Assembly: GCA_013812695.1 (NCBI GenBank)
Contig: JACCSZ010000180.1
Span: forward strand, 1-38,868
Direction of reading: 5' to 3'
Length of the DNA: 38,868 bases
DNA from: Gemmatimonadales bacterium
GTDB taxonomy: Bacteria; Gemmatimonadota; Gemmatimonadetes; Gemmatimonadales; GWC2-71-9
The position numbers were made by a program, and so were the translations under genes. How positions within the stretch are numbered: the stretch's first letter is position 1; each line of letters opens with the position of its first letter. The notes beneath the pieces were generated by a model that saw only the letters and a program-made list of their open reading frames with translations, made no database searches and was not told where the DNA came from. Below, piece after piece: positions 1,979 to 20,186 of this stretch.

Positions 1979-3253
1979 TCAAGCATCCGACCCCGCGGGC
2001 ACAGCGGCATGCCCGGGCTGGAAGGCGGACATAGGCGTCTCCGTTCCGAGCTCCCCCTCCCACCGGGCCATGACCGCCGTGGCCAGGCAGTTGCCGACCA
2101 AATTCACCATGGTGCGCGCCATGTCCATCAGCTCGTCCACGCCCAGAATGACCGCCACGCCCTCGAGCGGCAGGCCGAACGCCGTGAGCGTGCCCGAGAG
2201 CACCACCAGCGAGGCCCGCGGCACGGCCGCGATGCCTTTGCTGGTGATGAGCAGTGTCAGCATCATCAGGAGCTGCTGGCCGACCGTCAGCTCGACGCCG
2301 GCGGCCTGGGCCACGAAGATCGATGCGACGCCCAGATAAAGCGTCGAGCCGTCCAGGTTGAAGGAGTAGCCGGTCGGCATGACGAAGGCCACGATGCGTC
2401 GCGGCACCCCGAACTCGGTCATCCGCTGCATCGCGAGCGGGAGCGCGGCGTCGGAGGACGTCGTGGTGAAGGCGATGATCGCGGGGTCCTTCACCGCGCG
2501 TATGAACCGGGGGATCGAGATCCGGGCGATCAGCGCCGCCGGGACCAGCGCCACCAGCGCGAAGACGATCAGCGCACCGTACAGCGTCGCCACCAGGAGC
2601 CCGAGATTCTTGAGCACCTGGATGCCGCTGTGGCTCACCGTGACCGCCATGGCGGCACCGATGCCGATCGGGGCGTACCGCATGACGATCCCGACGAACT
2701 TGAACATCACCTCCATCAGTCCTTCGGAGACGCCGAGGATGACTTCCTTCGGCCGGCCGCGCACCTGGGTCAGCGCAATGGCGAAGAGAGTGGCCCAGAA
2801 GACCACCTGCAGCACCTCGTTGTCCGCCGCCGCCTCGAAGAAGCTCCGGGGCACGACGTGCTCGAGAAACCCGCCGAAGGTGGTGGGCGCCGGCTTGGGG
2901 ATCGCGGCGTTGGCGTCCGGGGCCGGGAGGATCACGCCGATGCCGGGCCGGGTGAGGTTGACCGCAACCAGGCCGATGGCCAGCGCGACCGTGGTCATCA
3001 GCCAGAAGTAGCTGATCGACTTGACCGCGAGGCGGCCGATGCGCTTGAGATCGTCGCCGTGGCCGGCGATCCCGACGACCAGGGTCCCGAAGATGATCGG
3101 CACCACGACCGACTTGATCATCCGGAGGAAAACGTTCGACAGCGGCTTGAGCGACGCCGCAAACTCGGGGGCCAGCCAGCCGACCAGGATGCCCACGCCC
3201 ATCCCGATGAAGATCCACCAGGTGAGCGACAGACTCCGAAGCGCGCGGAGCAT
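1979..3253 (-). CDS. Dicarboxylate/amino acid:cation symporter (DAACS, GltP/DctA family)
   Basis: [17 protein letters not shown] start overlaps the tal stop (TGATG). Motifs FLRMIKSVVVP, AFTTTSSDAALP, GYSFNLDGSTLY, LTSKG-like ITSKG, MDMARTMVNLVGN; many TM helices. Confidence 0.92.
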   Translation of the reverse strand: MLRALRSLSLTWWIFIGMGVGILVGWLAPEFAASLKPLSNVFLRMIKSVVVPIIFGTLVVGIAGHGDDLKRIGRLAVKSISYFWLMTTVALAIGLVAVNLTRPGIGVILPAPDANAAIPKPAPTTFGGFLEHVVPRSFFEAAADNEVLQVVFWATLFAIALTQVRGRPKEVILGVSEGLMEVMFKFVGIVMRYAPIGIGAAMAVTVSHSGIQVLKNLGLLVATLYGALIVFALVALVPAALIARISIPRFIRAVKDPAIIAFTTTSSDAALPLAMQRMTEFGVPRRIVAFVMPTGYSFNLDGSTLYLGVASIFVAQAAGVELTVGQQLLMMLTLLITSKGIAAVPRASLVVLSGTLTAFGLPLEGVAVILGVDELMDMARTMVNLVGNCLATAVMARWEGELGTETPMSAFQPGHAAVPAGSDA

Positions 3254-4380
3254 CAGCGGCCGACCAGTGCCTCGGCCTTCGCGTCGATCCCGTCCAGGAG
3301 CGACGCATACGACGCCGCGAACTTGGCGACCCCGTCCGTCTCCAGCTCCCGCGTGACCGCGGCGAGGTCGATGCCCAGCGCTCCCAGCGCCTCGAGCTGC
3401 GCCGGGGCCGCCGCCATTCCCTCCTGGATGCGCACTTCCGGGTTGCCATGATCGCGGTAGGCCGCGAACGTCTCCGGCGGCAGCGTGTTGACCGTGTGCG
3501 GCGCCACGAGTGCCTCGACGTAGTGCAGGTCGGAATAGCGCGGGTCCTTGGTGCTGGTCGAGGCCCAGAGCGGCCGCTGCGGGCGGGCGCCCGCCGCCGT
3601 CAGACGGTCCCAGCGTGCCGTGGCGATGGACGCCTCGAACAGGCGGTACGCGTCGCACGCGTTGGCGATGGCGATCCGGCCGCGGAGGCCCTTGGGGTCG
3701 TCGAGCCGGTCCAGCAGTGGATCGACCTTGCCGTCGACGCGGCTCACGAAGAAGCTCGCGACCGACGTGATCGGGCGGAGCGGCAGGCCCGCGTCGAGCC
3801 GGCGCTCGAGCCCGGTCAGAAACGCCTCGATGACCTCGGCGTAGCGCTCCACTGAGAATAAGAGCGTGACGTTGATGCTGATGCCGGCCGCGATGCTATC
3901 GGTAATCGCCGGCAGGCCCTCGGCCGTGCCCGGGATCTTGATCATCGCATTGGGCCGGTCGAGCGCGCGCCAGAGCCGTTCCGCCTCGTGGGTCGTCGCG
4001 TCGGTATCGTTGGCCAGGGTGGGCGATACCTCGAGGGAGACCAGGCCGTCGCCGCCGCCGGCCGCCTCGTAGACGCCCGCGAAGGCGTCGCACGCGGACC
4101 GCACGTCGGCGACGGCCAGGCGCTCGAAGATGTTCTGCGCGTCGCTGCCCGCGTCCGCCAGCGCGCGGATCTCGGCATCGTACAGCCGGCTGCCGGCGAT
4201 GGCTTTCTCGAAGATCGTCGGGTTGGAGGTCATGCCGCGGAGCCCGTCGTCCGCGATGAGGCGCGTCAGCTCGCCGGCCGTCACGAGATCGCGCGTGATG
4301 TAATCGTACCACGGGCTCTGGCCGAGCTCGCCCAAGCGCGCAAGCGGGTTTGCCCCCGGTGACTGCTGGTCGGTCGTCAT
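3253..4380 (-). CDS. tal: Transaldolase (long, mycobacterial/plant-type)
   Basis: Starts [13 protein letters not shown]. Motifs [33 protein letters not shown] (Schiff-base Lys), [34 protein letters not shown] overlap with tkt. Confidence 0.95.
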
Positions 4381-6482
4381 GTGCTTCCCTCGCTCCGGCT
4401 CGGGGCATGCCTCGTTGCGAGCAGCCGCCGCACGATGCCGGCGGCCCGCTCGGGGGTGAACTTGAACTCTTCGAACAGCCGGTCGCCGGGGGCGGAGGCG
4501 CCGAAGCCCTCCATAGCGAGCATCGCCCCGTCGTCGGTGGTCCAGCGCTCCCATCCGAACGGCGACGCCGCTTCGATGCCGAGCCGCACACGCACGCCCG
4601 GCGGCAGCACCTGATGCCGGTAGCTCTCGGGCTCGGCGGCGAACAGCTCCCACGAGGGCATCGAGACCACCCGCACGCGCACCCGGTCGGCCTGCAGCAG
4701 CCGCGCGGCGGCCAGCGCCACGTGCACTTCGGAGCCGGTGGCGATCAGGATCGCCTGCGGCGTCCCGCCCGGCGGATCGAGCAGCACGTACCCGCCGCGC
4801 GCCACGTGCCCGGCGGCGCCCAAGACCGTGCGGTCGAGTACGGGAAGCTTCTGCCGGCTGAGCACGAGCAGCGTCGGCCCGGCGGTCCGCGCGGCCGCCA
4901 CACGCCATGCCTCGATCGTCTCGGTGCCGTCGGCCGGCCGGAGCACCACCAGGTTGGGGATGGCGCGGAGCATCGCCAGATGCTCGATCGGCTGATGGGT
5001 GGGCCCGTCCTCGCCCACGCCGATGGAGTCGTGCGTTCCGATGATGATGACCGGCAGCCGCATGATCGCCGCCAATCGGATGGACGGCTTCATGTAGTCG
5101 GAGAAGACCAGGAAGGTGCTGCCGAATGGCCGGAGCCCGCCGTGCGCGGCGATGCCGTTGAGGCACGCAGCCATCCCGTGCTCGCGCACGCCCCAGTGGA
5201 ACGTGCGGCCCGTCGTGGTGGGGCCGAAGACCCCGGCTTGCTTGAGCATGGTGCCGGTGCTCCCGCCGAGATCGGCCGAGCCGCCGATCAGGTTGGGGAC
5301 CGCGGCGGCAATCGCCTGCAGCGCGAGGCCCGAGGCCTGCCGGGTGGCGAGGGGGCCGCTGTCGGGCGTGAGCGCGGGGAGTCCACGATCCCAGCCATCG
5401 GGCAGCGCGCCCGAGAGCCACTGCCGCAGCTCGCCCGCGGCCTCGGCGTGGTCGGCCGTGTAGGCGGCCAGACGCGTGCGCCACTCGGTCTCCGCCGCGA
5501 TGCCCCGTGGCACCGCCTCGCGCCAGTGATTCAGCGCGTCGTCGGGGACGTGAAACGCCGGCTCCACAGGCCAGCCCATGATCTCCTTGGTGCGGCGCAC
5601 CTCCTCGGCGCCGAGCGGCTCGCCGTGGGCCTTGGCCGTATTGCGCTTGGTTGGCGCCGGATCGGCGATGTAGGTGCGGACGATGACGAGCGTCGGCCGG
5701 CCGGTCTCGGCGATCGCCGCTTCGTAGGCGTCACCGATGGCGGCGAGATCGTTACCGTCGGCCACGCGGACGACGTGCCAGCCGTAGCCCTCGAACCGCC
5801 GTTGGACGTCCTCGCTGAACGAGAGCGCGGTGTCGCCGTCGATGGTGATGTGATTGTCGTCGTAGACCAGCGTCAGCTTGACCAGCCTGAGGTGCCCCGC
5901 GATCGAGGCCGCCTCGTGCGAGACGCCTTCCATCAGGTCGCCGTCGCTCACGATCGCCCAGGTGCGGTGGTCGACGATCCCGTGACCGGGCCGGTTGAAA
6001 TGCTCGGCCAGGAAGCGCTCGGCGATGGCCATGCCCGCCGCGTTCCCGATGCCCTGCCCCAGCGGGCCGGTCGTGGTTTCGACTCCCGCCGTGTGTCCCC
6101 GCTCGGGATGCCCTGGTGTCTTGGAGCTCCACTGCCGGAAGCCCCGGATGTCGTCGAGCGACAGGTCGTAGCCCGTGAGGTGCAGCACGGCGTAGAGCAG
6201 CAGCGACGCGTGCCCGCACGAGAGCACGAAGCGGTCGCGGTCGGGCCAGTCGGGATGGTGCGGCGAGTGCTTGAGGAAGCGGTGGTAGAGCACGTACGCG
6301 GCCGGAGCCAGCGCCATCGGGGTGCCCGCGTGCCCGGACTGCGCGGCCTCGACCGCGTCCATGGAGAGCGCGCGGATGGCGTTGATGCTCCGCCACGTCA
6401 CCGCCTCGGGCGCTGGCTCGGCGGCCTTGTGGGCGGTACCGGCGGCTCGCGAAGTGCGGAGGCGAGTGCTCTCTGCGGTCAG
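4377..6482 (-). CDS. tkt: Transketolase; start probably CTG at 6482 (the ORF track uses GTG at 6401)
   Basis: Motifs [37 protein letters not shown] (ThDP), [32 protein letters not shown] lies 6 nt before an in-frame CTG. Confidence 0.95.
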
Positions 6483-6673
6483 AACCGACTCCTTTCGCGC
6501 GGATCACTGCGCCGGGCGGCGAGCGAAGCAGCGGGGAGCCGGGAAGATAACTCGCCAGGTTGAATGGCGGAAAGACGGGATCATCTCTTCCTTTTGACGG
6601 TATAACCTCCTGTCGCTCCGCCCCGGCTGCCCCTACTTTATCCCTAGCCGATGAGTCCGCCGCCGCCACGCCA

Positions 6674-7540
6674 GTGACCCGACCCGACCGGACGTACGAG
6701 ATCCACGAGGTAGCCGAGCTGACGGGCCTGGCCGCCGCGCGTCTCCGGGCGTGGGAGCGGCGCTACGAGGTGGTCCGTCCGCAGCGGATGTCCAACGGCT
6801 ACCGGGCTTACACTGCCGGGCAAGTGGCGTTGCTGCGCGCGTACGCCCGGCTGATCCAGGGGGGCGAGCGGATCGGCGATCTGGCCACCCAGCCGAGCGA
6901 GGGCGTGCTCGCCCGGGCGGAAGCGCGGTCGCTCGATGGCTCACCCCACGCGGCGCTGATGGAAGCGGTCTGCGCTTTCGACCGCGAGCGGATTGAGGGA
7001 CTCGTGGCGCAGCAGCTCGCGCTTCGCGGCCTCCGCGCCTTCGCGGAAGAGGTGGTGATGCCGCTGGCCCGATCGGTCGGCGACCTCTGGGCGCTCGGCA
7101 GGATCCCGATCGCCGCCGAGCACCTGGCCAGCGAAGTGGTGCTGCATGCGCTGAAGGGTGGGCTTCGCATGTCGCGCGGGACGGGGCCGCTGGTGGTGGG
7201 TGCCTGCCTCCCGGGGGAGCGGCACGAGTGGGGCTTTCTGGCGACGCTCGCCGTCGTGCAGGAAGATGGCTGGCGCATTCATTACCTCGGGGCCGATCTC
7301 CCGGTCGACGAAGTCGTGCAGGCGGCCTGGAAGCTCCTGCCGCAAGGGGTCGCGTTCAGCAGCAGCGATCCGGCGATCGTCCGCGCCAGCCTGCCGGCGC
7401 TCGCGCGGGTGCTCGGCAAGCTCCCGCCCAGGACGACGGCCGCCATCGGCGGGGGCGGCGTGGAGCCCCATGCACGCGTGCTGCGCGGCTACGGCTTTGT
7501 GATCGGGCTCGAGGCATTCAACAAGGCACCACCGCGATGA
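6674..7540 (+). CDS. carH: CarH/LitR-type MerR-family adenosylcobalamin-dependent photoreceptor transcriptional repressor
   Basis: N-terminal MerR HTH with RAWERRY. W-x9-EH motif (WALGRIPIAAEH). B12 motif E-x-H-x2-G-x41-S-x-S-x27-GG (ERHEWG...SSS...GG). ATGA-coupled to crtI. The GTG start at 6674 is approximate. Confidence 0.88.
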   Translation: MTRPDRTYEIHEVAELTGLAAARLRAWERRYEVVRPQRMSNGYRAYTAGQVALLRAYARLIQGGERIGDLATQPSEGVLARAEARSLDGSPHAALMEAVCAFDRERIEGLVAQQLALRGLRAFAEEVVMPLARSVGDLWALGRIPIAAEHLASEVVLHALKGGLRMSRGTGPLVVGACLPGERHEWGFLATLAVVQEDGWRIHYLGADLPVDEVVQAAWKLLPQGVAFSSSDPAIVRASLPALARVLGKLPPRTTAAIGGGGVEPHARVLRGYGFVIGLEAFNKAPPR

Positions 7541-9081
7541 CGACGACGCGTCCCATCTCCACCGGCCGTCCGGCCGCTCGTGCGCCTTCCGTCCCGGAGG
7601 ACCCGGCGCGCCAGGTCCTCGTGATCGGCGCCGGGCTGGGTGGGCTGGCCGCCGCGATCCGGCTCCGGCACCGCGGCTTCCGGGTCACGGTGCTCGAGCG
7701 CCACCCGCACCCGGGTGGCCGCTGCGGACTGTGGGAATCGGAGGGGTTCCGGTTCGACACCGGCCCCACGCTGCTCCTGATGGTCGACTACCTGCGGGCG
7801 CTCTTCCGCGAAGTGGGCCGGCCGCTCGAGGACTATCTCGAACTGCGGCAGCTCGACCCCAACTACCGGGTCCACTACGCCGACGGCAGCACCCTCGACG
7901 TCACCAGCCGCCTCAACGCGCTGCTCGAGGGGGTCGAGCGGATCGAGCCCGGGGTGACGCCGCGGTTCCTGCGCTTCCTGTCGGCGACGGCGCAGCTCTA
8001 TCGCATCGGCCTCGACGGCTTCGTCGATCGCAACATCCACCGCCGCGGCGACTTCTTCAACTTGAAGAACGCGGGCCGCCTGCTGCGCGCGCGCGCCATG
8101 GAGCGGCTGCAGCGCATGATGCGCCGCTACTTCCGGTCGGAAAAGCTGCGGCACACGTTCAGCTTTCAGTCGCTCTACCTGGGCCTCTCGCCGTTCGACT
8201 CCCCCGCCATCTACAGCCTGCTCCCGTACACCGAAGTGGCCGGCGGCCTGTACTTTCCCATGGGCGGGATGCACGCCATGCCCCGCGCGCTGGCGCGGCT
8301 CGCCGAGGAGCTCGGCGTGCGGATCGAGTATGGCCGTGACGTCCGCGCCCTCGAGCGCGCGGACGGGCGCATCTGCGCGGTGCAGCTCGCCGACGGCTCG
8401 CGCCTGCCCGCCGACCTGGTGCTCGCCAACGCCGATCTTCCGTACGTGTACGAGACGCTGCTGAGAGAGAAATACCCGCGGATCGACCGCTTCGATTTCA
8501 GTTGCTCCGCGTTCCTGATGTACCTCGGCGTGAACCGTCGCTATCCCGACCTCACGCACCACGCGCTCGTGGTACCGCGTGACCTCCGGGCCACCTGCGA
8601 CGATATCTTCTCCGGGCGCGTGCCGGGGGATCCGGCGTACTACGTCTGCAATCCCAGCAAGACCGATCCGAGCCTCGCGCCGCCCGGCTGCGAGAACATC
8701 TACGTGCTGGTGCCCGTACCGAGCCAGTTGCCCGGCCGGGAGATCGACTGGTCCATCGAAGGACCCCGGCTCGAGGCGGCCATGCTGGAGCGGCTCGAGC
8801 GCTTCGGGCTGACGGACCTTCGCCGCCACATCGTCACGCGGCGCACGTTTTCGCCGGTCGACTTCACCCACGACTTCTCCGCCACCCGCGGGGAGGCCTT
8901 CGGGCTGGCGCACGGCATCGACCAGGTCGGCTTCTTCCGGCCGCACAACCGGCATCCGCGGTTCGAGAACCTCTACTTCGTGGGCCAGAGCACGCACCCG
9001 GGCTGTGGGATCCCGATGGTGCTGATTTCCTCACGGCTGGTTGTCGAGCGCATGGCCGCCGAGCAGGCGGTGCGGCCGTGA
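7537..9081 (+). CDS. crtI: Phytoene desaturase family (CrtI-type) FAD oxidoreductase
   Basis: VIGAGLGGLAAA dinucleotide fold, GFRFDTGPT, FSFQSLYLGLSP, FPMGGM, C-terminal NLYFVGQSTHPGCGIPMVLIS. Sits between carH and crtB. Confidence 0.88.
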   Translation: MTTTRPISTGRPAARAPSVPEDPARQVLVIGAGLGGLAAAIRLRHRGFRVTVLERHPHPGGRCGLWESEGFRFDTGPTLLLMVDYLRALFREVGRPLEDYLELRQLDPNYRVHYADGSTLDVTSRLNALLEGVERIEPGVTPRFLRFLSATAQLYRIGLDGFVDRNIHRRGDFFNLKNAGRLLRARAMERLQRMMRRYFRSEKLRHTFSFQSLYLGLSPFDSPAIYSLLPYTEVAGGLYFPMGGMHAMPRALARLAEELGVRIEYGRDVRALERADGRICAVQLADGSRLPADLVLANADLPYVYETLLREKYPRIDRFDFSCSAFLMYLGVNRRYPDLTHHALVVPRDLRATCDDIFSGRVPGDPAYYVCNPSKTDPSLAPPGCENIYVLVPVPSQLPGREIDWSIEGPRLEAAMLERLERFGLTDLRRHIVTRRTFSPVDFTHDFSATRGEAFGLAHGIDQVGFFRPHNRHPRFENLYFVGQSTHPGCGIPMVLISSRLVVERMAAEQAVRP

Positions 9082-9980
9082 GCGCCTGGGCGCTCGAGCG
9101 CAGCTATCTCCGGGCGGAGCGCGCGACGGCGGTGTGGGCGCGCAGCTTCTACTTCGCCAGCCGCTTCCTGCCCGCCGAGAAGAAACGGGCGGTATTCGCG
9201 CTGTACGACTACTGCCGCCATGCCGACAACCTGGTCGACGCGCGCGGCGATCGCGCGCGGGCGGAGGTGCTGTCCGACCTCGAGGCGCTCGGCGCCACGG
9301 TCCGCGCCCTCCACGCCGGCGCCGCGTCCCCCGGCGACCGGTGGCTCGCCCTGGCCGACACCCTGCGCCGCTGCGACGTCCCGCTCGAGCCGCTGCTCGA
9401 GCTACTCGACGGCGTGGCGATGGATCTGGACGACGTGGCGTTCCCCGACTACTCCTCGCTCCACCGCTACTGCCGGCTCGTGGCCGGGGGTGTCGGCCTC
9501 ATGCTCGGTCCGGTGCTCGGCGCCGCCCCGCACCGGTTCCGGGAGCCGGGCGTCGGGCTCGGCGTGGCCATGCAGCTCACCAACGTCCTCCGAGACGTGG
9601 GCGAGGACCTCGACGCCGGCAGGCTCTACCTCCCCGCCGACGAGCTGGCGCGGTTCGATCTCGGCCGGGCCGCGCTCGAGCGGCGCGAGGCCACGCCCGA
9701 ATTCGCGGCCTTCATGCGGTTCCAGATCTCCCGCGCCCGAGCCCTCTTCGACGCCGCCGACCAGGTCGTCGACCTGTTCCCGCCCGACGGCTCCCGGGTC
9801 ACCGTCCGCCTGCTGCAGCGCACGTACGCCGGAATTCTCGATGGCATCGAGCGACTCGGTTACGACGTGTTCCGGACGCGCGCGTACGTGTCCGGCCCGC
9901 GGAAGCTGATCATCCTCGGCCGCGCCATATGGGCCGAGCGGCCGCTTCGGTCCACCCTGTCGTGGGCCCGGCCCGCGTAG
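9078..9980 (+). CDS. crtB: Phytoene synthase
   Basis: ARSFYFASRFLP, YDYCRHADNLVD, YCRLVAGGVG, AMQLTNVLRDVGEDLDAGRLYLP. GTGA overlap with crtI. Confidence 0.92.
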   Translation: MSAWALERSYLRAERATAVWARSFYFASRFLPAEKKRAVFALYDYCRHADNLVDARGDRARAEVLSDLEALGATVRALHAGAASPGDRWLALADTLRRCDVPLEPLLELLDGVAMDLDDVAFPDYSSLHRYCRLVAGGVGLMLGPVLGAAPHRFREPGVGLGVAMQLTNVLRDVGEDLDAGRLYLPADELARFDLGRAALERREATPEFAAFMRFQISRARALFDAADQVVDLFPPDGSRVTVRLLQRTYAGILDGIERLGYDVFRTRAYVSGPRKLIILGRAIWAERPLRSTLSWARPA

Positions 9981-10065
9981 CGGAAATGATCCGTAACCCC
10001 GCGCGCAGGGCAGCGCAACAGCCTCAGGTGTCGGACGTAGCCGAGCACAGACGACGGAGGCGACT

Positions 10066-11826
10066 TTGATCGGGAGACTGCTGGGCCGACGCGCGATTCT
10101 CTCGGAGCGCGAGCAGGAGCTCCGCTCGCGTGAGCAGGAGCTGCTCGACCGCCTCGCCACCGCGCTGGCTCGCTTCGGGACCGATGTCGACCCCGACGAC
10201 CTCCGGCGCTTTCGCGACGCCCGCGATCAGCTCACCGGACTCTTCCTCCTCGTCGTCGCCGGCGAGTTCAATTCGGGCAAGTCGAGCTTCATCAACGCCC
10301 TCCTGGGCGAGCGCGTGCTGCCCGAGGGCGTCACGCCCACCACCGACCGCATCAACCTGCTGCGCTTCGGCCCCGCGGTGTCGGAGCAGCTCCTCGAGGC
10401 GTTCCTGCTCGAACGCACTTACCCGTCGGACCTGCTCCGCGAGATCACGATCGTCGACACCCCGGGCACCAACGCCATCATCCGGCGCCACGAGGAGCTC
10501 ACCCGCGATTTCATCCCCCGCGCCGACCTCGTGCTCTTCGTCACCAGCGCGGACCGGCCGTTCACCGAGAGTGAGCGCGGGTTCCTGGAACAGATCCGCG
10601 AGTGGGGCAAGAAGATCGTGTTCGTGGTCAACAAGATCGACATCCTGACACGCCCCGAGGACCGGCAGCAGGTGCTCGATTTCGTGCGCCAGCACGCGCA
10701 GGCCCTGCTCGGCGAGGAGCCCCGCCTGTTTCCGGTGTCGGCGCGCGACGCGCTGGACGCCCGCACCGCCGGCTCGGCCGACGGCTGGGGCTCGAGCGGC
10801 TTCGGTGCGATGGACGAGTACCTCGTCCGGACGCTCGACCAGGAGGAGCGCGTCCGGCTCAAGCTCCTCAACCCGCTCAACGTCGGCCTCAAGCTCTCGG
10901 CCAAGTACAAGGATGTGGCGTTCCAGCGGCTCAAGCTCCTCACGCAGGACGTCGAGACCATCCAGAGCATCGACCGCCAGCTCGCGCTGGTGCACGACGA
11001 GCTGGTGCGCGACGTGGAGCCGAGGCTCGCGCGCCTGGATGTGCTGCTGTCGGACATGGAGCGCCGGGGGCACGGGTTCTTCGAGGAGACCATCCGGATC
11101 GGCCGGATCCGCACCCTGATGGACAGCGAGGGCGTGCGCCGCGCGTTCGAGCGCGAGGTCATCGGCGACACCGCCGCGCAGATCGAGGTGGAGACCGGGC
11201 GGATCATCGACTGGATCGTCGAGCGGAACCTCAAGGCCTGGCAGGACGTGAGCGGGTACATCGACCGGCGGCAGATCGACCGGCACCGCGAGGGGATGGT
11301 CGGTGAGGTCGGCACGAGCTTCACGTACAACCGCCAGGCCCTGCTCGACTCGATCGGCCGGGTGGCGCGCGAGGTGATCGGGACGTACGACCGCGAGGCC
11401 GAAGCGCGGGCCATCGCCAACGACGTGCAGGGAGCGTTCGCCACCACCGCGCTGGCGCAGGTCGGCGCGCTCGGCCTGGGGACGCTGGTGGTCACGCTGC
11501 TCACCGGCGCCGCCGCCGACGTGACGGGACTGCTCCTGGCCAGCGCGCTCGCGGTCAGCGGCTTCTACGTGATCCCGCGCCGCCGCCGCCAGGCGCAGCG
11601 CGAGTTCGCCGGCCGCATCGCCGATCTCAGGCGCCGCCTCCGCGACGGGCTGACCCGGCAGGTGCACCTCGAGATCGCCCAGTCGACCGAGCGGATCAAC
11701 GAAGCGATCGCGCCGTACCGGCGGTTCGTCCAGAGCACTCAGCAGGAGCTGACTGACGCGCGCGGCGAGCTGGTGGCCACCGAGGACTCGCTGCTCCGGC
11801 TCCGCACCGAGATCGAGCGCCCATGA
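10066..11826 (+). CDS. Bacterial dynamin-like GTPase (mitofusin/FZL-like) with C-terminal hydrophobic hairpin
   Basis: SD GGAGG then TTG start. G1 GEFNSGKS, G2 PTT, G3 DTPG, G4 NKID. Long helical stalk, two hydrophobic segments ending in IPRRRR, then a C-terminal coiled coil. Confidence 0.9.
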   Translation: MIGRLLGRRAILSEREQELRSREQELLDRLATALARFGTDVDPDDLRRFRDARDQLTGLFLLVVAGEFNSGKSSFINALLGERVLPEGVTPTTDRINLLRFGPAVSEQLLEAFLLERTYPSDLLREITIVDTPGTNAIIRRHEELTRDFIPRADLVLFVTSADRPFTESERGFLEQIREWGKKIVFVVNKIDILTRPEDRQQVLDFVRQHAQALLGEEPRLFPVSARDALDARTAGSADGWGSSGFGAMDEYLVRTLDQEERVRLKLLNPLNVGLKLSAKYKDVAFQRLKLLTQDVETIQSIDRQLALVHDELVRDVEPRLARLDVLLSDMERRGHGFFEETIRIGRIRTLMDSEGVRRAFEREVIGDTAAQIEVETGRIIDWIVERNLKAWQDVSGYIDRRQIDRHREGMVGEVGTSFTYNRQALLDSIGRVAREVIGTYDREAEARAIANDVQGAFATTALAQVGALGLGTLVVTLLTGAAADVTGLLLASALAVSGFYVIPRRRRQAQREFAGRIADLRRRLRDGLTRQVHLEIAQSTERINEAIAPYRRFVQSTQQELTDARGELVATEDSLLRLRTEIERP

Positions 11827-12593
11827 CGGGGCGATACCCGGCGCCGCCCAGCCGCACCGCCGCGCGCCTGTTCGACCGCTACATCCGCGGGCAGGTGCGT
11901 CGGTGCTTCACGGGCGTGCACTGGGCGGCCCGCGGACGGCCCGAGCGGTGGGACCGCGAGCTGCCGACGCTGTTCCTGGCCAACCACACCAACTGGTGGG
12001 ACGGCTTCCTGGCCTGTCTGCTGACCGGCCGCCTGGGACTGCGCTTTCAAGTACTGATGGAGGCGCAGCATCTGGCCCGGTATCCGATCTTTCTCCGTGT
12101 GGGCGCGCTGCCGATGCGCCGTCGCCGACCGCGCGAGGCCTATGAGGATCTGACCGCCGCCGCCGCCTACCTCGAGCCCGGCGTCGCGCTCTGGGTCTTC
12201 CCCCAGGGGGAGCGCCGGCCGCCGCGCGAGCCGCTGGCCGGCTGCGAGCGCGGCGCCGCGCACCTGGCGCTCCGGGCGGGGCGATCGATCCGGGTGTGCC
12301 CCGTGGCCTTTCGCTATGCATTCGTCGGCGAGCAGCTCCCCGACGCGTTTCTCCTCGTGGGCGACGAATGGCTGTGCGAGCCGGGCGCCCGCACTGAACG
12401 CGGACCGTTGATGACGGACATGGAAAGCCGCCTCGCCGCGACGGTGTCCGCGCTCGATGGGCTGCTCGACCAGGAACGGCTCGACGACTTCCGCCCGCTC
12501 GCCGACGGCAAGCTGTCGGTCAACAAGCGGCTGGACCGCTTTCGCCACGCCATCGGGCTGCTGCGGGGGCCGTTCGAGGCGCGGAATGGATGA
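11823..12593 (+). CDS. PlsC-superfamily acyltransferase, CruD-like (putative carotenoid-glycoside acyltransferase)
   Basis: Catalytic H-x4-D in ANHTNWWDGF, plus LWVFPQGE block. ATGA overlap with the dynamin gene; lies in a crt cluster. Substrate is inferred. Confidence 0.75.
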   Translation: MTGRYPAPPSRTAARLFDRYIRGQVRRCFTGVHWAARGRPERWDRELPTLFLANHTNWWDGFLACLLTGRLGLRFQVLMEAQHLARYPIFLRVGALPMRRRRPREAYEDLTAAAAYLEPGVALWVFPQGERRPPREPLAGCERGAAHLALRAGRSIRVCPVAFRYAFVGEQLPDAFLLVGDEWLCEPGARTERGPLMTDMESRLAATVSALDGLLDQERLDDFRPLADGKLSVNKRLDRFRHAIGLLRGPFEARNG

Positions 12594-13038
12594 GCTTGCG
12601 GTGCTCCGGACACTCCACGTGGCGGGTGCCGTGCTGCTGATCGGCAACGTGACCGTGACCGGGTTCTGGGCCACCTTTCTGTATCGCGAGCGAGCGACGG
12701 TGCCGTTCCGCCCGGTGGCGCGCGCCATCATGTGGGCCGACGTCGTCTTCACCCTCCTTGGCGGCACCCTGCTGACCATCAGCGGCATCCTGCTGGCCAT
12801 GCGGCGCGGGTATCCCGTGCTGGAGACCGCCTGGCTCATCCGCGGGATCGCGGCACTCGCGCTGTCGACGCTGCTCTGGCTGATCTTCCTGCTGCCCGAT
12901 CAATGGCGACTGGAGCGGGTCCGCCCGGATGACGACCGCGCGCTCCGGCGACTGTTCCTGCGATGGAGCGCGGTCGGGTGGGCGGCCACGGCCATCCTGT
13001 TTTACGGGCTGTGGTGCATGGTCGCGAAGCACACCTGA
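12586..13038 (+). CDS. DUF2269-like 4-TM integral membrane protein
   Basis: MDELAVLRTLHVAGAVLLIGN..., ADVVFTL, W-rich last helix ending MVAK. Overlaps the acyltransferase stop by 8 bp. Confidence 0.7.
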   Translation: MDELAVLRTLHVAGAVLLIGNVTVTGFWATFLYRERATVPFRPVARAIMWADVVFTLLGGTLLTISGILLAMRRGYPVLETAWLIRGIAALALSTLLWLIFLLPDQWRLERVRPDDDRALRRLFLRWSAVGWAATAILFYGLWCMVAKHT

Positions 13039-13058: not shown

Positions 13059-13565
13059 TCACGCCGCGCTCGCCGCCGATGATCGGGATCGTGGCGCGCG
13101 GCGCCCGAGGGCCCCTGTGGCGTCCGGCGCCGACCGCCGTAGGGCGAACGCGCCGTCACCCACCCCGGCCTGCACGAGGAGTGCGGCGATCAGGAAGGCG
13201 ACATACTCCCAGCCGCCCTCCGGGGCGGTAAAGCTCCACCCGTTTGGCCAGTGGACCGTGAGGGCTCCGAGCATGACCGGTACGAGTGCGAGGGCCACCC
13301 AACGGGGCCAGGCCCCTGCGATCAGCGCGAGCCCGCCGAGGAGCTCCGCCGCGAACACCGGGTACGCGGTCCACCCGGGAAATCCGTGCGCGGCGAAGAA
13401 AGCGACGGTGCCGGGCAGCGTGAATACCAGGAGCTTGAGGAGCGCATGGGCGATGAAGACGGCGCCCAGCGCGAAGCGGAACGCGAACACTGCATAGGGT
13501 GCCGTCCGGAGGTCGATCGAGACGGAGGACGGTCGTGCCTCGGGGCGGTCGGGCGAGTACAGCAT
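13059..13565 (-). CDS. DoxX family membrane protein
   Basis: SD GGAGGG before ATG 13565. FRFALGAVFIAHALLKL, AELLGGLALIAG, HWPNGWSFTAPEGGWEY, GDGAFAL. Confidence 0.85.
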   Translation of the reverse strand: MLYSPDRPEARPSSVSIDLRTAPYAVFAFRFALGAVFIAHALLKLLVFTLPGTVAFFAAHGFPGWTAYPVFAAELLGGLALIAGAWPRWVALALVPVMLGALTVHWPNGWSFTAPEGGWEYVAFLIAALLVQAGVGDGAFALRRSAPDATGALGRRAPRSRSSAASAA

Positions 13566-13674
13566 GGAAGGTTCCCTCCGATAAAAGTTTTCGGCGGCCA
13601 GTGGCATTGCTTGTTTACAGGTAAGTCCTCACAACGACTAATAAACGGACGGGCGAAGCGACCGACCCGCCCCG

Positions 13675-14145
13675 TCACGACGCCGGCGTTCGAGCCAGCA
13701 CGAGAAGTTTGGCCAGCAGCTCCAGTTGCGCCCGACTCATGTGCGCGAGCTGCTCGCGGTGCAAGCGGGGGACGGCTGCGTCCAGCGGTTTCAGCAGCAC
13801 CAGTGCTTTCGCCGTAATCACCGCCACGACGACGCGCCGATCCTGCGCATGCCGGGAACGACGCACGAGCTCGCGCGCCTCGAGCCTATCGAGGAGACGC
13901 GTCACGTCCGGGTCGCGGTTGACCATGCGCTCGCCCACCTCACCACAGGTGGCCCCCTGTGGCCCCGCACCGCGAAGTATGCGCAGCACGTTGTACTGCG
14001 CGAACGTCAACTCCGTGGCCCGCAACGCCTGGGCCTCGCGCTGGAGCAACACATCGCCCGTGCGCAGGACATTGAGGAACACCTCTTCCTCGAGGTTGGC
14101 GAACGGCTTGCGCTGCTGAAGATCCCGGGCAAGTGCGGTCGGCAT
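13675..14145 (-). CDS. MarR family transcriptional regulator
   Basis: LTFAQYNVLRILRGAG, DVTRLLDRLEARELVRR, QDRRVV wing motif. Confidence 0.9.
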   Translation of the reverse strand: MPTALARDLQQRKPFANLEEEVFLNVLRTGDVLLQREAQALRATELTFAQYNVLRILRGAGPQGATCGEVGERMVNRDPDVTRLLDRLEARELVRRSRHAQDRRVVVAVITAKALVLLKPLDAAVPRLHREQLAHMSRAQLELLAKLLVLARTPAS

Positions 14146-14152
14146 ACCTGGG

Positions 14153-14181
14153 AAGTTATCTGTCACAACGAATGTCGTCAA
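14153..14181 (-). promoter_or_regulatory. Sigma70-type promoter of marR, probably leaderless
   Basis: Minus strand reads TTGACG-17 nt-TAACTT, 7 nt before ATG 14145, with no strong SD. Confidence 0.6.
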
Positions 14182-14320
14182 GAGGAGCAAGTGCCAGCAT
14201 CGCCAGGGCCTCCCGGGAGTGCCCAGCTCGTGCGTGGGGCACGCAATCGCTCAGCTTGGACGGACGCCGAACTATGTCGCTCGCGGAGGCTTCGGGCGAG
14301 ATTGGAGAGGGAGGAATCGG

Positions 14321-14944
14321 ATGGAATCGACCGAAGAACGCCAGAGCGGCCGCGGCCGGGACCGCGCCCGCCGCGGTGCCAGACCCTGGCTTGGAGCCTT
14401 CGTCGCCATCGTCGTGGTGCCGATCCTGATCGGGGCGGGTGTGGTGCTGGTGGCGGGGCGCGGGGTGGCGTTCGAGGCTATCCGCCGGCTGACCGCGCAC
14501 AAATTTCCCGACGTGCAGTGGATCGAGGCCGCCGAGCTGGCACGCTGGCGCGAGGATCCCGGGCGGACGCAGCCGCTGGTGCTGGATGCCCGTACCGCGG
14601 TGGAATACCGCGTGAGCCATCTCCGGGACGCCGTGCACCTCGATCCCCACCGGCCCAGCCTGCACCCGCTCCGAGGGCGCGCGAAGAACGATCCGCTGGT
14701 CCTCTACTGCTCCGTCGGCTACCGGAGCGCGCGCGTGGCGCACTGGCTTGCGGCGCAGGGCTACACCAACGTGTGGAATCTCTCGGGCAGCCTCTTTCAA
14801 TGGGCCAACGAGGACCGCCCGGTCTTTCGGGAAGGGCGCCCCGCGCTCCAAGTCCATCCGTACGACCGTCGGTGGGGACTGCTGCTCGAGTCGCGGTACC
14901 GGGCCTCCGTGCCAGAGGTAGAGACTCCGTTCGCGGCTCCCTGA
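14321..14944 (+). CDS. Membrane-anchored rhodanese-like domain protein
   Basis: SD GGAGG, an N-terminal TM helix, VLDART..EY.VSHL, active-site LYCSVGYRS, NLSGSLFQW. Confidence 0.85.
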   Translation: MESTEERQSGRGRDRARRGARPWLGAFVAIVVVPILIGAGVVLVAGRGVAFEAIRRLTAHKFPDVQWIEAAELARWREDPGRTQPLVLDARTAVEYRVSHLRDAVHLDPHRPSLHPLRGRAKNDPLVLYCSVGYRSARVAHWLAAQGYTNVWNLSGSLFQWANEDRPVFREGRPALQVHPYDRRWGLLLESRYRASVPEVETPFAAP

Positions 14945-16226: not shown

Positions 16227-19961
<3,735 letters not shown>

Positions 19962-20186
19962 CCCGAGGGAAGGGTGCAGCGAAGGGGGCGCCGGCGCGGC
20001 CGGCGCCCCAGGATTGGGATGCTGAAAGATAACTGCCGTCCGTGGGGTTGCGAGCGAGATTCGAGCGGGCGTCCAAGCGGCGCGCGCCCGCACGTCTCCT
20101 ACGTGGTTGAGGCGGTTCGGTCTTGCGGAAGCTCATACGGCACGCAAGAATGCGTGTCAGGCCATCCGTTATCCAGGGAGCGTGGC

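Follow-up and report, generated by a model that had tools for sequence, protein, structure and literature searches.

Why should a gene for a dynamin-like GTPase lie inside a carotenoid gene cluster headed by a candidate light-sensing repressor? This question is raised by a 38,868-bp stretch of DNA from a Gemmatimonadales bacterium (contig JACCSZ010000180.1 of assembly GCA_013812695.1; hereafter the window), in which six co-oriented genes, carH-crtI-crtB-dynamin-acyltransferase-DUF2269, occupy positions 6674–13038. The occurrence of a dynamin gene within a carH-headed crt operon is real and unusual. To explain it, we propose with moderate confidence, which concerns mostly the structural and evolutionary part, that a stand-alone gene for a bacterial dynamin-like protein (BDLP) was inserted between crtB and the acyltransferase gene of an old, family-wide carH-crtI-crtB-acyltransferase-DUF2269 operon in one Gemmatimonadales clade, that this gene is most likely transcribed by two routes, and that its product would function independently of carotenoids. 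What the sequences support directly is the identity of each gene, the insertion itself, the shared absence of pigment genes, the scars left by deletion, and the fact that a promoter-like element is conserved.

The window corresponds to contig C250 of a 3.29-Mb assembly (91.65% complete) and has a G+C content of ~70%. All six open reading frames (ORFs) on the + strand translate cleanly without stops, and the order, coordinates, overlaps, and 85-bp gap reported in the initial annotation agree with the domains found by Pfam and NCBIfam profile searches. The gene carH (6674–7540, +) encodes a MerR-type regulator, a candidate adenosylcobalamin (AdoCbl) photoreceptor/repressor, with MerR_1, B12-binding_2, and B12-binding domains (Pfam). 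It is followed by crtI of the phytoene desaturase family (7537–9081, +; TIGR02734 crtI_fam, 505.6 bits, cut-off 238.1), crtB of the phytoene synthase family (9078–9980, +; Pfam SQS_PSY, 226.6 bits), the dynamin-like GTPase gene (10066–11826, +; 586 aa, TTG start), a gene for an LPLAT-family acyltransferase (11823–12593, +; PF01553, 38.8 bits, cut-off 23), and a gene for a DUF2269 membrane protein (12586–13038, +; PF10027, 61.9 bits). The overlaps are 4 bp each for carH/crtI, crtI/crtB, and dynamin/acyltransferase, and 8 bp for acyltransferase/DUF2269. In the 85-bp crtB-dynamin gap (9981–10065, +), a GGAGG ribosome-binding site precedes the TTG start. A transketolase gene (4377–6401, −; Pfam Transketolase_N, Transket_pyr, and Transketolase_C_1) lies upstream in divergent orientation, and therefore carH heads the + strand block. 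Co-transcription from carH to DUF2269 is plausible, being compatible with these overlaps and with the absence of a terminator pattern. The order crtB-dynamin-acyltransferase-DUF2269 is repeated on contigs from six other species (L002, L004, L007, L011, L013, and L018), and one contig from an independent soil run (labelled METAGENOMIC RNA-Seq, flagged as probably DNA) bridges positions 9576–10262. Because these contigs agree, the gene arrangement is not a one-off assembly product.

The GTPase encoded in the window is a BDLP. Its Dynamin_N match scores 93.1 bits against a Pfam cut-off of 27, and the G motifs GEFNSGKS (GxxxxGKS), DTPG, and NKID, recognized by eye, are invariant across 19 orthologues. 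In a phmmer search of PDB, the best match was the Nostoc BDLP (2j68, E 4.5e-16), with the Campylobacter DLP pair, IniA, and LeoA also among the best solved relatives. An AlphaFold model built from the 19 orthologues (mean predicted local distance difference test score, pLDDT, 79.6) has an N-terminal GTPase domain and a long helical stalk; residues ~460–500 form a hydrophobic stretch, a predicted helical hairpin ahead of the last helix, with pLDDT <50. The top Foldseek hits of this model were BDLP (2j69/2j68), IniA (6j72), Campylobacter DLP (5oxf), and LeoA (4aur), with E values from 1e-17 to 2.5e-11 and template modelling (TM) scores of ~0.3. The protein shares with known BDLPs (Nostoc BDLP 2j68/2j69, Mycobacterium IniA 6j72, Campylobacter DLP1/DLP2 5owv/5oxf, Escherichia coli LeoA 4aur, and Bacillus subtilis DynA) the N-terminal dynamin GTPase and the long helical stalk, in line with a BDLP/mitofusin-type fold, and the hydrophobic stretch is a candidate for the membrane-inserting hairpin; the PDB structures in this group are its best matches in both sequence and fold. 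It differs from them in that the identity over the fold alignments is just 14–18%, with the low TM score probably resulting from a different stalk conformation. Several named BDLP systems are pairs or fusions, whereas the window dynamin is a lone gene, present as a single copy in its genome with no tandem partner. The genomic context with carH and crt genes is also new for BDLPs.

How old is the association between the dynamin and the pigment genes? For comparison, we took the best 80 of 108 stretches with related dynamin loci, in which synteny was determined by tblastn with the window proteins and genes were called crudely (stop-to-stop ORFs with a filter on G+C content at third codon positions, GC3). 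We refer to the window and 21 loci with dynamin identity ≥83% as the window's clade, and to 59 loci with identity ≤77% as the distant set. Among 120 other sampled genomes of the same family, dynamin orthologues (E ≤ 1e-30) were found in 4 and acyltransferase orthologues in 11. One of the acyltransferase orthologues adjoins a dynamin gene (G021, contig C186). We examined the remaining ten loci with ~8 kb on each side; all ten lack the dynamin and have the contiguous arrangement of a transketolase gene on the − strand followed by carH-crtI-crtB-acyltransferase-DUF2269, with no carH match in L102. One genome (G076) carries such a dynamin-less cluster and, on a different contig, a 75%-identical dynamin. 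In a midpoint-rooted crtB tree of moderate support, all six clusters with a dynamin group together as a single clade (support 89/99), which branches from within the ten that lack it. The simplest reading of these sequences is that a carH-headed five-gene carotenoid operon was ancestral in the family, and that a single insertion placed the dynamin between crtB and the acyltransferase gene.

The same comparison settles where the two downstream genes belong. Because they directly follow crtB in all ten dynamin-less clusters, the acyltransferase and DUF2269 genes are members of the pigment operon rather than partners of the dynamin. Both are also absent from all 15 loci of the window's clade that lack intact crtI/crtB and from the 59 distant dynamin loci. 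It is most improbable, then, that these two proteins serve the dynamin, for example in lipid remodelling for fusion, as the 4-bp and 8-bp overlaps in the window might suggest; we rejected them as dynamin partners, as both track crtB. The initial annotation was accordingly right to regard the acyltransferase gene as a carotenoid-cluster gene and, in the physical sense, to regard the dynamin, flanked by crtB and this carotenoid-linked gene, as embedded in the carH-headed cluster rather than merely adjacent to it.

Does the dynamin depend on the pigment genes that surround it? All 22 loci of the window's clade lie between the transketolase gene (left) and a rhodanese-domain gene (right), and three forms can be distinguished. 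The full form is found in seven loci (the window, L002, L004, L007, L011, L013, and L018), a form with only carH and the dynamin in nine (L003, L005, L006, L009, L010, L012, L019, L020, and L053), and a form with only the dynamin in six (L008, L014, L015, L016, L017, and L075). Across these loci, crtI/crtB and acyltransferase/DUF2269 are either jointly present or jointly absent. Remnants of the 3′ end of crtB persist between carH and the dynamin in L003 (residues 248–294; found by two independent analyses), L006 (241–298), and L009 (254–300), and the reduced forms therefore arose from the full form by deletion. In the dynamin tree, loci of the reduced forms branch from within the full ones, as do dynamin-only loci from within those with carH plus dynamin. 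The SQS_PSY family (PF00494) was not found in any of five genomes (3.6–4.8 Mb) with only carH plus dynamin, while control genomes gave the expected results, nor in four of five dynamin-only genomes. Of these ten reduced-form genomes, the only one bearing PF00494 is G130, in which two SQS_PSY genes lie in tandem (C93:2721–4327), an arrangement that we take to be typical of the hpnC/hpnD squalene/hopanoid genes rather than crtB.

These patterns suggest that the pigment genes on both sides of the BDLP gene were lost together in many relatives, with the BDLP gene, and often carH, being kept. Because the dynamin was retained where the pigment genes on both sides were lost, we consider it independent of carotenoids; it would be a GTP-driven membrane-remodelling protein, or presumably a membrane-repair protein, that does not require them. 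It had been proposed that the dynamin and the pigments act together, under light induction, to build carotenoid-rich membrane domains or vesicles. Its position between crtB and the carotenoid-linked acyltransferase gene in 7 of the 22 clade loci is what such a joint function would predict. However, this proposal is not borne out and now appears very unlikely: the insertion is specific to one clade, with 10/10 family clusters in other genomes lacking a dynamin; the dynamin is kept in 15/22 clade loci without crtI/crtB, with no PF00494 gene found in 9/10 tested genomes; and none of the 59 distant orthologue loci has crt neighbours.

In those distant loci, the neighbours of the dynamin are unrelated to pigments. 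The best 80 of the 108 dynamin stretches belong mostly to Gemmatimonadales, Longimicrobiaceae, and other Gemmatimonadota; seven of them are presumably Chloroflexota, and one (L072) is from a Candidatus organism. For carH, crtI, crtB, the acyltransferase, and DUF2269, no tblastn match (E ≤ 1e-3) was found in any of the 59 distant loci, of which 40 include ≥3 kb of upstream and ≥1.5 kb of downstream sequence. The recurrent neighbours there are genes for UDG, DUF1097, a sigma-70 factor, DUF3618, BrkB, an FkbM methyltransferase, an M20 peptidase, and SAM_HAT. A gene-neighbourhood survey of the dynamin had been suggested as a check on its linkage to carotenoid genes, and among the loci compared, most orthologues prove to be unlinked.

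How, then, is the inserted gene transcribed? The gap at 9981–10065 contains no terminator-like or promoter-like site according to a simple pattern scan, which agrees with the earlier view that no terminator separates crtB from the dynamin, and its RNA folds no better than shuffled sequences (z 0.33). The corresponding gap is ~25–40 bp in L004, L007, L011, L013, and L018, and ~100 bp in L002. One route to the BDLP would be read-through from the carH promoter, which we infer from the overlap of the two ancestral downstream genes with the BDLP stop and from their lack of any other obvious promoter. The second would be a dedicated promoter, recruited from the final crtB codons, for which conservation is the evidence. 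By aligning the 230 nt upstream of the dynamin start in the 22 clade loci, we found a promoter-like element inside the 3′ end of crtB (9838–9866, +), which reads TCGATG-N17-TACGAC in the window, belongs to the conserved block TCGACG-N17-TAYGAT, and has the clade consensus TCGACG-N17-TATGAT. In a pattern search, this element was present in 16/22 clade loci and 0/59 distant loci, with the spacing always being 17 nt; when the −35 pattern was loosened by one position, it was present in 11/15 reduced loci. The element is coding within crtB in the full form and persists as non-coding sequence in most crtB-deleted loci. In reduced loci, the identity to the full-form consensus is 64/66 for the −35 hexamer and 61/66 for the −10 hexamer, compared to 119/187 for the spacer and 41–42% for the 20-nt flanks, the hexamer figures being inflated by the site-picking pattern, which fixes 4/6 positions in each hexamer. 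The element was thus apparently co-opted from the coding sequence of crtB as a promoter for the dynamin and then preserved after crtB was deleted. At the position of 9861–9866 in crtB, five of seven full-form loci have the T-ending codons GGT TAT GAT despite a GC3 of 80–90%, while dynamin-less clusters mostly have TAC GAC, which may reflect selection for an improved −10 box within the coding sequence. In L014, the transketolase-dynamin intergenic region (3010–3335) is full of short CCGTCC/TTCC-type repeats instead of the promoter-like element.

Two lines of argument against coupling had been raised earlier, namely a start site specific to the dynamin within 9981–10065 and orthologues unlinked to crt genes. 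The orthologues are indeed mostly unlinked, while the predicted promoter lies in crtB (9838–9866), not in the gap. Could the dynamin then be a neutral hitch-hiker that landed in the operon by chance, with a constitutive promoter of its own and a position without regulatory meaning? The conserved promoter-like element, with its fixed 17-nt spacing and a spacer that diverged after crtB loss, would fit this explanation, as would the six loci that lack carH altogether and the varied, unrelated contexts of orthologues. However, the acyltransferase and DUF2269 genes overlap the BDLP stop, such that transcription must cross the BDLP gene to keep them co-regulated with crtI/crtB. In addition, two loci (L005 and L010) have carH overlapping the dynamin gene and lack the internal element, and the window's own copy of the element is weak. 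We therefore regard chance placement as unlikely, and return to an inserted gene served by both read-through and its own promoter.

For the regulator at the head of the operon, the Pfam domains PF13411 (MerR-type HTH, residues 8–65), PF02607 (four-helix-bundle B12-binding_2, 94–160), and PF02310 (Rossmann B12-binding, 173–269) are all above their cut-offs. The motifs DLW-ALGRIPIAA-EH (Wx9EH) and GERHEWG (ExHxxG), recognized by eye, are conserved in all 11 aligned orthologues; according to an excerpt of PMC9304148, the Wx9EH plus D/ExHxxG motif separates the B12-dependent CarH from the B12-independent CarA. Against the NCBIfam CarH equivalog NF052513, the protein scores 117.9 bits, below the cut-off of 400, although this is still its best NCBIfam match (E 4.8e-34). 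The gene is single copy in the window's genome. Upstream of carH, a conserved block (6594–6639, +), a candidate promoter/operator region, consists of TTGACG, GGTATAAC, CTGTCGC, 17 nt, and TACTTT. In the alignment of the intergenic region between the transketolase gene and carH, GGTACAAY, CCTGTCGCTC, 17 nt, and TACCTT are kept in order in the 10 aligned loci that bear carH, which include both full and carH-plus-dynamin forms, and the block is missing from the five aligned loci without carH. The pattern CTGTCGC-N17-TACYTT has one site in the window's genome (6610–6639), such that this narrow search found no further regulon members there. In L005 and L010 (8950–9110 in each), the conserved promoter block and the start of carH are separated by ~100 bp of extra sequence, which contains a long perfect inverted repeat and resembles a small palindromic mobile element.

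The locus resembles the CarH/LitR carotenoid operons of Thermus thermophilus, Myxococcus xanthus, other Myxococcales, and Bacillus megaterium, as these are described in the same excerpt (PMC9304148), in that a MerR plus B12 regulator with Wx9EH and ExHxxG heads co-oriented crtI and crtB, with a divergent promoter region upstream. It differs from them in its sub-threshold equivalog score and in its content, which is limited to crtI and crtB plus the acyltransferase, DUF2269, and, in this clade, the dynamin. A third difference concerns the operators, which the excerpt describes as plastic, tandem 11-bp direct repeats (nnnnTnnACAn) that overlap the promoter, and which were not found upstream of carH in the window's clade. 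Given the plasticity of operators described in that excerpt, the absence of TnnACA does not exclude CarH binding here.

Light control of the dynamin by CarH is possible. In crtB-less genomes, a carH orthologue still stands beside the dynamin, and the gene is intact and appears to be under purifying selection, with ratios of non-synonymous to synonymous substitution rates (dN/dS) of 0.120–0.237 compared to 0.107–0.122 among full-form loci. In such genomes, the BDLP gene seems to be the only conserved gene linked in cis to an intact carH, and in two species (L005 and L010) the carH stop overlaps the GTG start of the dynamin by 4 bp, putatively coupling their translation. Indirectly, the purifying selection on carH and this overlap speak most strongly for a light-controlled dynamin. 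They raise the tentative idea that CarH directly gates the BDLP, the two genes forming a light-induced membrane-repair module in carotenoid-less Gemmatimonadales. In a stronger version, selection would have recruited the BDLP into the CarH regulon, AdoCbl-bound CarH repressing it in the dark and light inducing the mending of photo-oxidised membranes, with or without pigments. Light control would then be a selected function, rather than a by-product of position as in the explanation that we prefer. Consistent with such a function, carH lies beside the dynamin in 9 of the 15 clade loci without crtI/crtB, its Wx9EH and ExHxxG motifs are intact there, the conserved block upstream of carH is kept in carH-plus-dynamin loci, and no PF00494 gene was found in the five such genomes searched, so that no carotenoid target would be left. 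L005 and L010, in which the two genes overlap, have lost the internal element. Sequencing runs matching at least half of the sequence words of the stretch are mostly labelled as soil, biocrust, or sand metagenomes, with one sediment and some unlabelled; none is on record as RNA, and the two labelled METAGENOMIC RNA-Seq are probably DNA. However, 6 of the 22 clade loci lack carH and would drive the dynamin from the internal element alone, and no carH orthologue was found elsewhere in 5/5 of the dynamin-only genomes; these six loci are the best evidence against CarH control being essential. Moreover, no carH lies next to distant dynamin orthologues, retention of carH could reflect targets that are not linked to it, and no CarH operator was identified upstream of carH. 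Recruitment for light-gated repair is accordingly a possibility that we hold with some doubt.

Several observations weigh against our preferred explanation of an old operon with an inserted, dually transcribed BDLP gene. Co-transcription, the BDLP start site, light control, and membrane repair are all inferred. For the internal element, a similar but weaker sequence, in most cases with TACGAC, arises from these crtB codons (LDxIExxxYD) in 7 of the 10 dynamin-less crtB genes. The window's copy (TCGATG/TACGAC) is the weakest of the clade and resembles this plain coding version, its nearest relative L002 fails the element pattern, and four of the 15 reduced loci (L005, L010, L014, and L020) lack the element. 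For the evolutionary steps, the direction of the insertion is suggested by parsimony and by the midpoint-rooted crtB tree. The dynamin tree may not follow the species tree, and recombination between species would lower the count of independent losses. All genomes compared are metagenome-assembled, and genes that are not found are not necessarily absent. Finally, neither TnnACA nor TGTnnA was found on either strand from −170 to +6 of carH in any of 11 clade loci, although the looser pattern of PMC9304148 was not applied; because no canonical TnnACA operator repeat lies upstream, CarH control of the carH promoter stays a candidate only.

For the pigment pathway itself, the acyltransferase suggests a lead. 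Its sequence NHTNWWD contains an H-TNWW-D segment that fits HX4D, the motif of the LPLAT family. Close homologues were automatically annotated by their source as chlorobactene lauroyltransferase, which we take to be CruD, and a protein cluster search returned only generic acyltransferase clusters. It resembles CruD of Chlorobaculum tepidum and Chloroflexus aurantiacus in being an LPLAT (PF01553) enzyme in a carotenoid gene cluster; according to the portion of PMC13704108 that concerns it, CruD esterifies carotenoid glucosides. Unlike in CruD systems, a search of the genome (91.65% complete) for a CruF-type hydratase (PF04240) gave no match and the window cluster contains no glycosyltransferase, and therefore a CruD substrate may not exist here; the likeness to CruD comes from automatic naming only. 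The window crtI is the only crtI-family gene above the cut-off in its genome. Because of this single gene and the CruF-type hydratase not being found, a CruD role is a lead rather than a result. A second full-length, weak crtI-family relative (G000:C399:37503–38960, +; 100 bits, below the cut-off) could be a carotenoid desaturase or an unrelated amine oxidase.

Outside the operon, the transketolase gene is the conserved left flank in all configurations (tblastn synteny), and a rhodanese-domain gene (14219–14944, +; Pfam) is the conserved right flank within the window's clade. In L005 (6256–8277) and L008 (7669–9688), the transketolase tblastn match is split into two or three frame-changing pieces, which may be frameshifts or assembly errors. 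DoxX and MarR genes (13059–14190, −; Pfam) are convergent with the operon. Only the window has this pair between DUF2269 and the rhodanese gene, and when the neighbours of 81 loci were clustered both genes were singletons, suggesting that the pair was inserted here recently. Further downstream, a 1288-aa ORF (16227–20093, −) encodes a fused E2-E1 2-oxoglutarate dehydrogenase, in which the catalytic domain of a 2-oxoacid dehydrogenase acyltransferase (E2) is joined to an E1 component, Transket_pyr, and OxoGdeHyase_C; it presumably resembles the actinobacterial OdhA/Kgd type.

Searches of full-text literature turned up no article connecting dynamin-like proteins with CarH/LitR or with crt operons, and among the matches listed, a dynamin term occurred only in a plant plastoglobule study. 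The initial annotation, which knew of no described dynamin within a crt regulon, is in line with this result. For the family, the locus documents a conserved five-gene Gemmatimonadales carotenoid operon with an uncharacterised acyltransferase and DUF2269 pair, and pigment genes that are absent from many soil lineages that keep the photoreceptor gene carH. It is also a clear case of a promoter apparently co-opted from a coding sequence and preserved after the host gene was deleted. The purpose and triggers of BDLPs are still largely open, and the cases known so far implicate membrane stress caused by antibiotics or phage. The Gemmatimonadales loci offer a natural series, from the full operon through carH plus dynamin to the dynamin alone, in which a BDLP lies under or just beyond a light-sensing repressor, and this series makes the proposition that light or photo-oxidative stress induces a BDLP testable. 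If true, CarH gating of a BDLP would for the first time extend the outputs of CarH-family regulators beyond pigments to membrane remodelling, and would provide a defined natural trigger for a BDLP.

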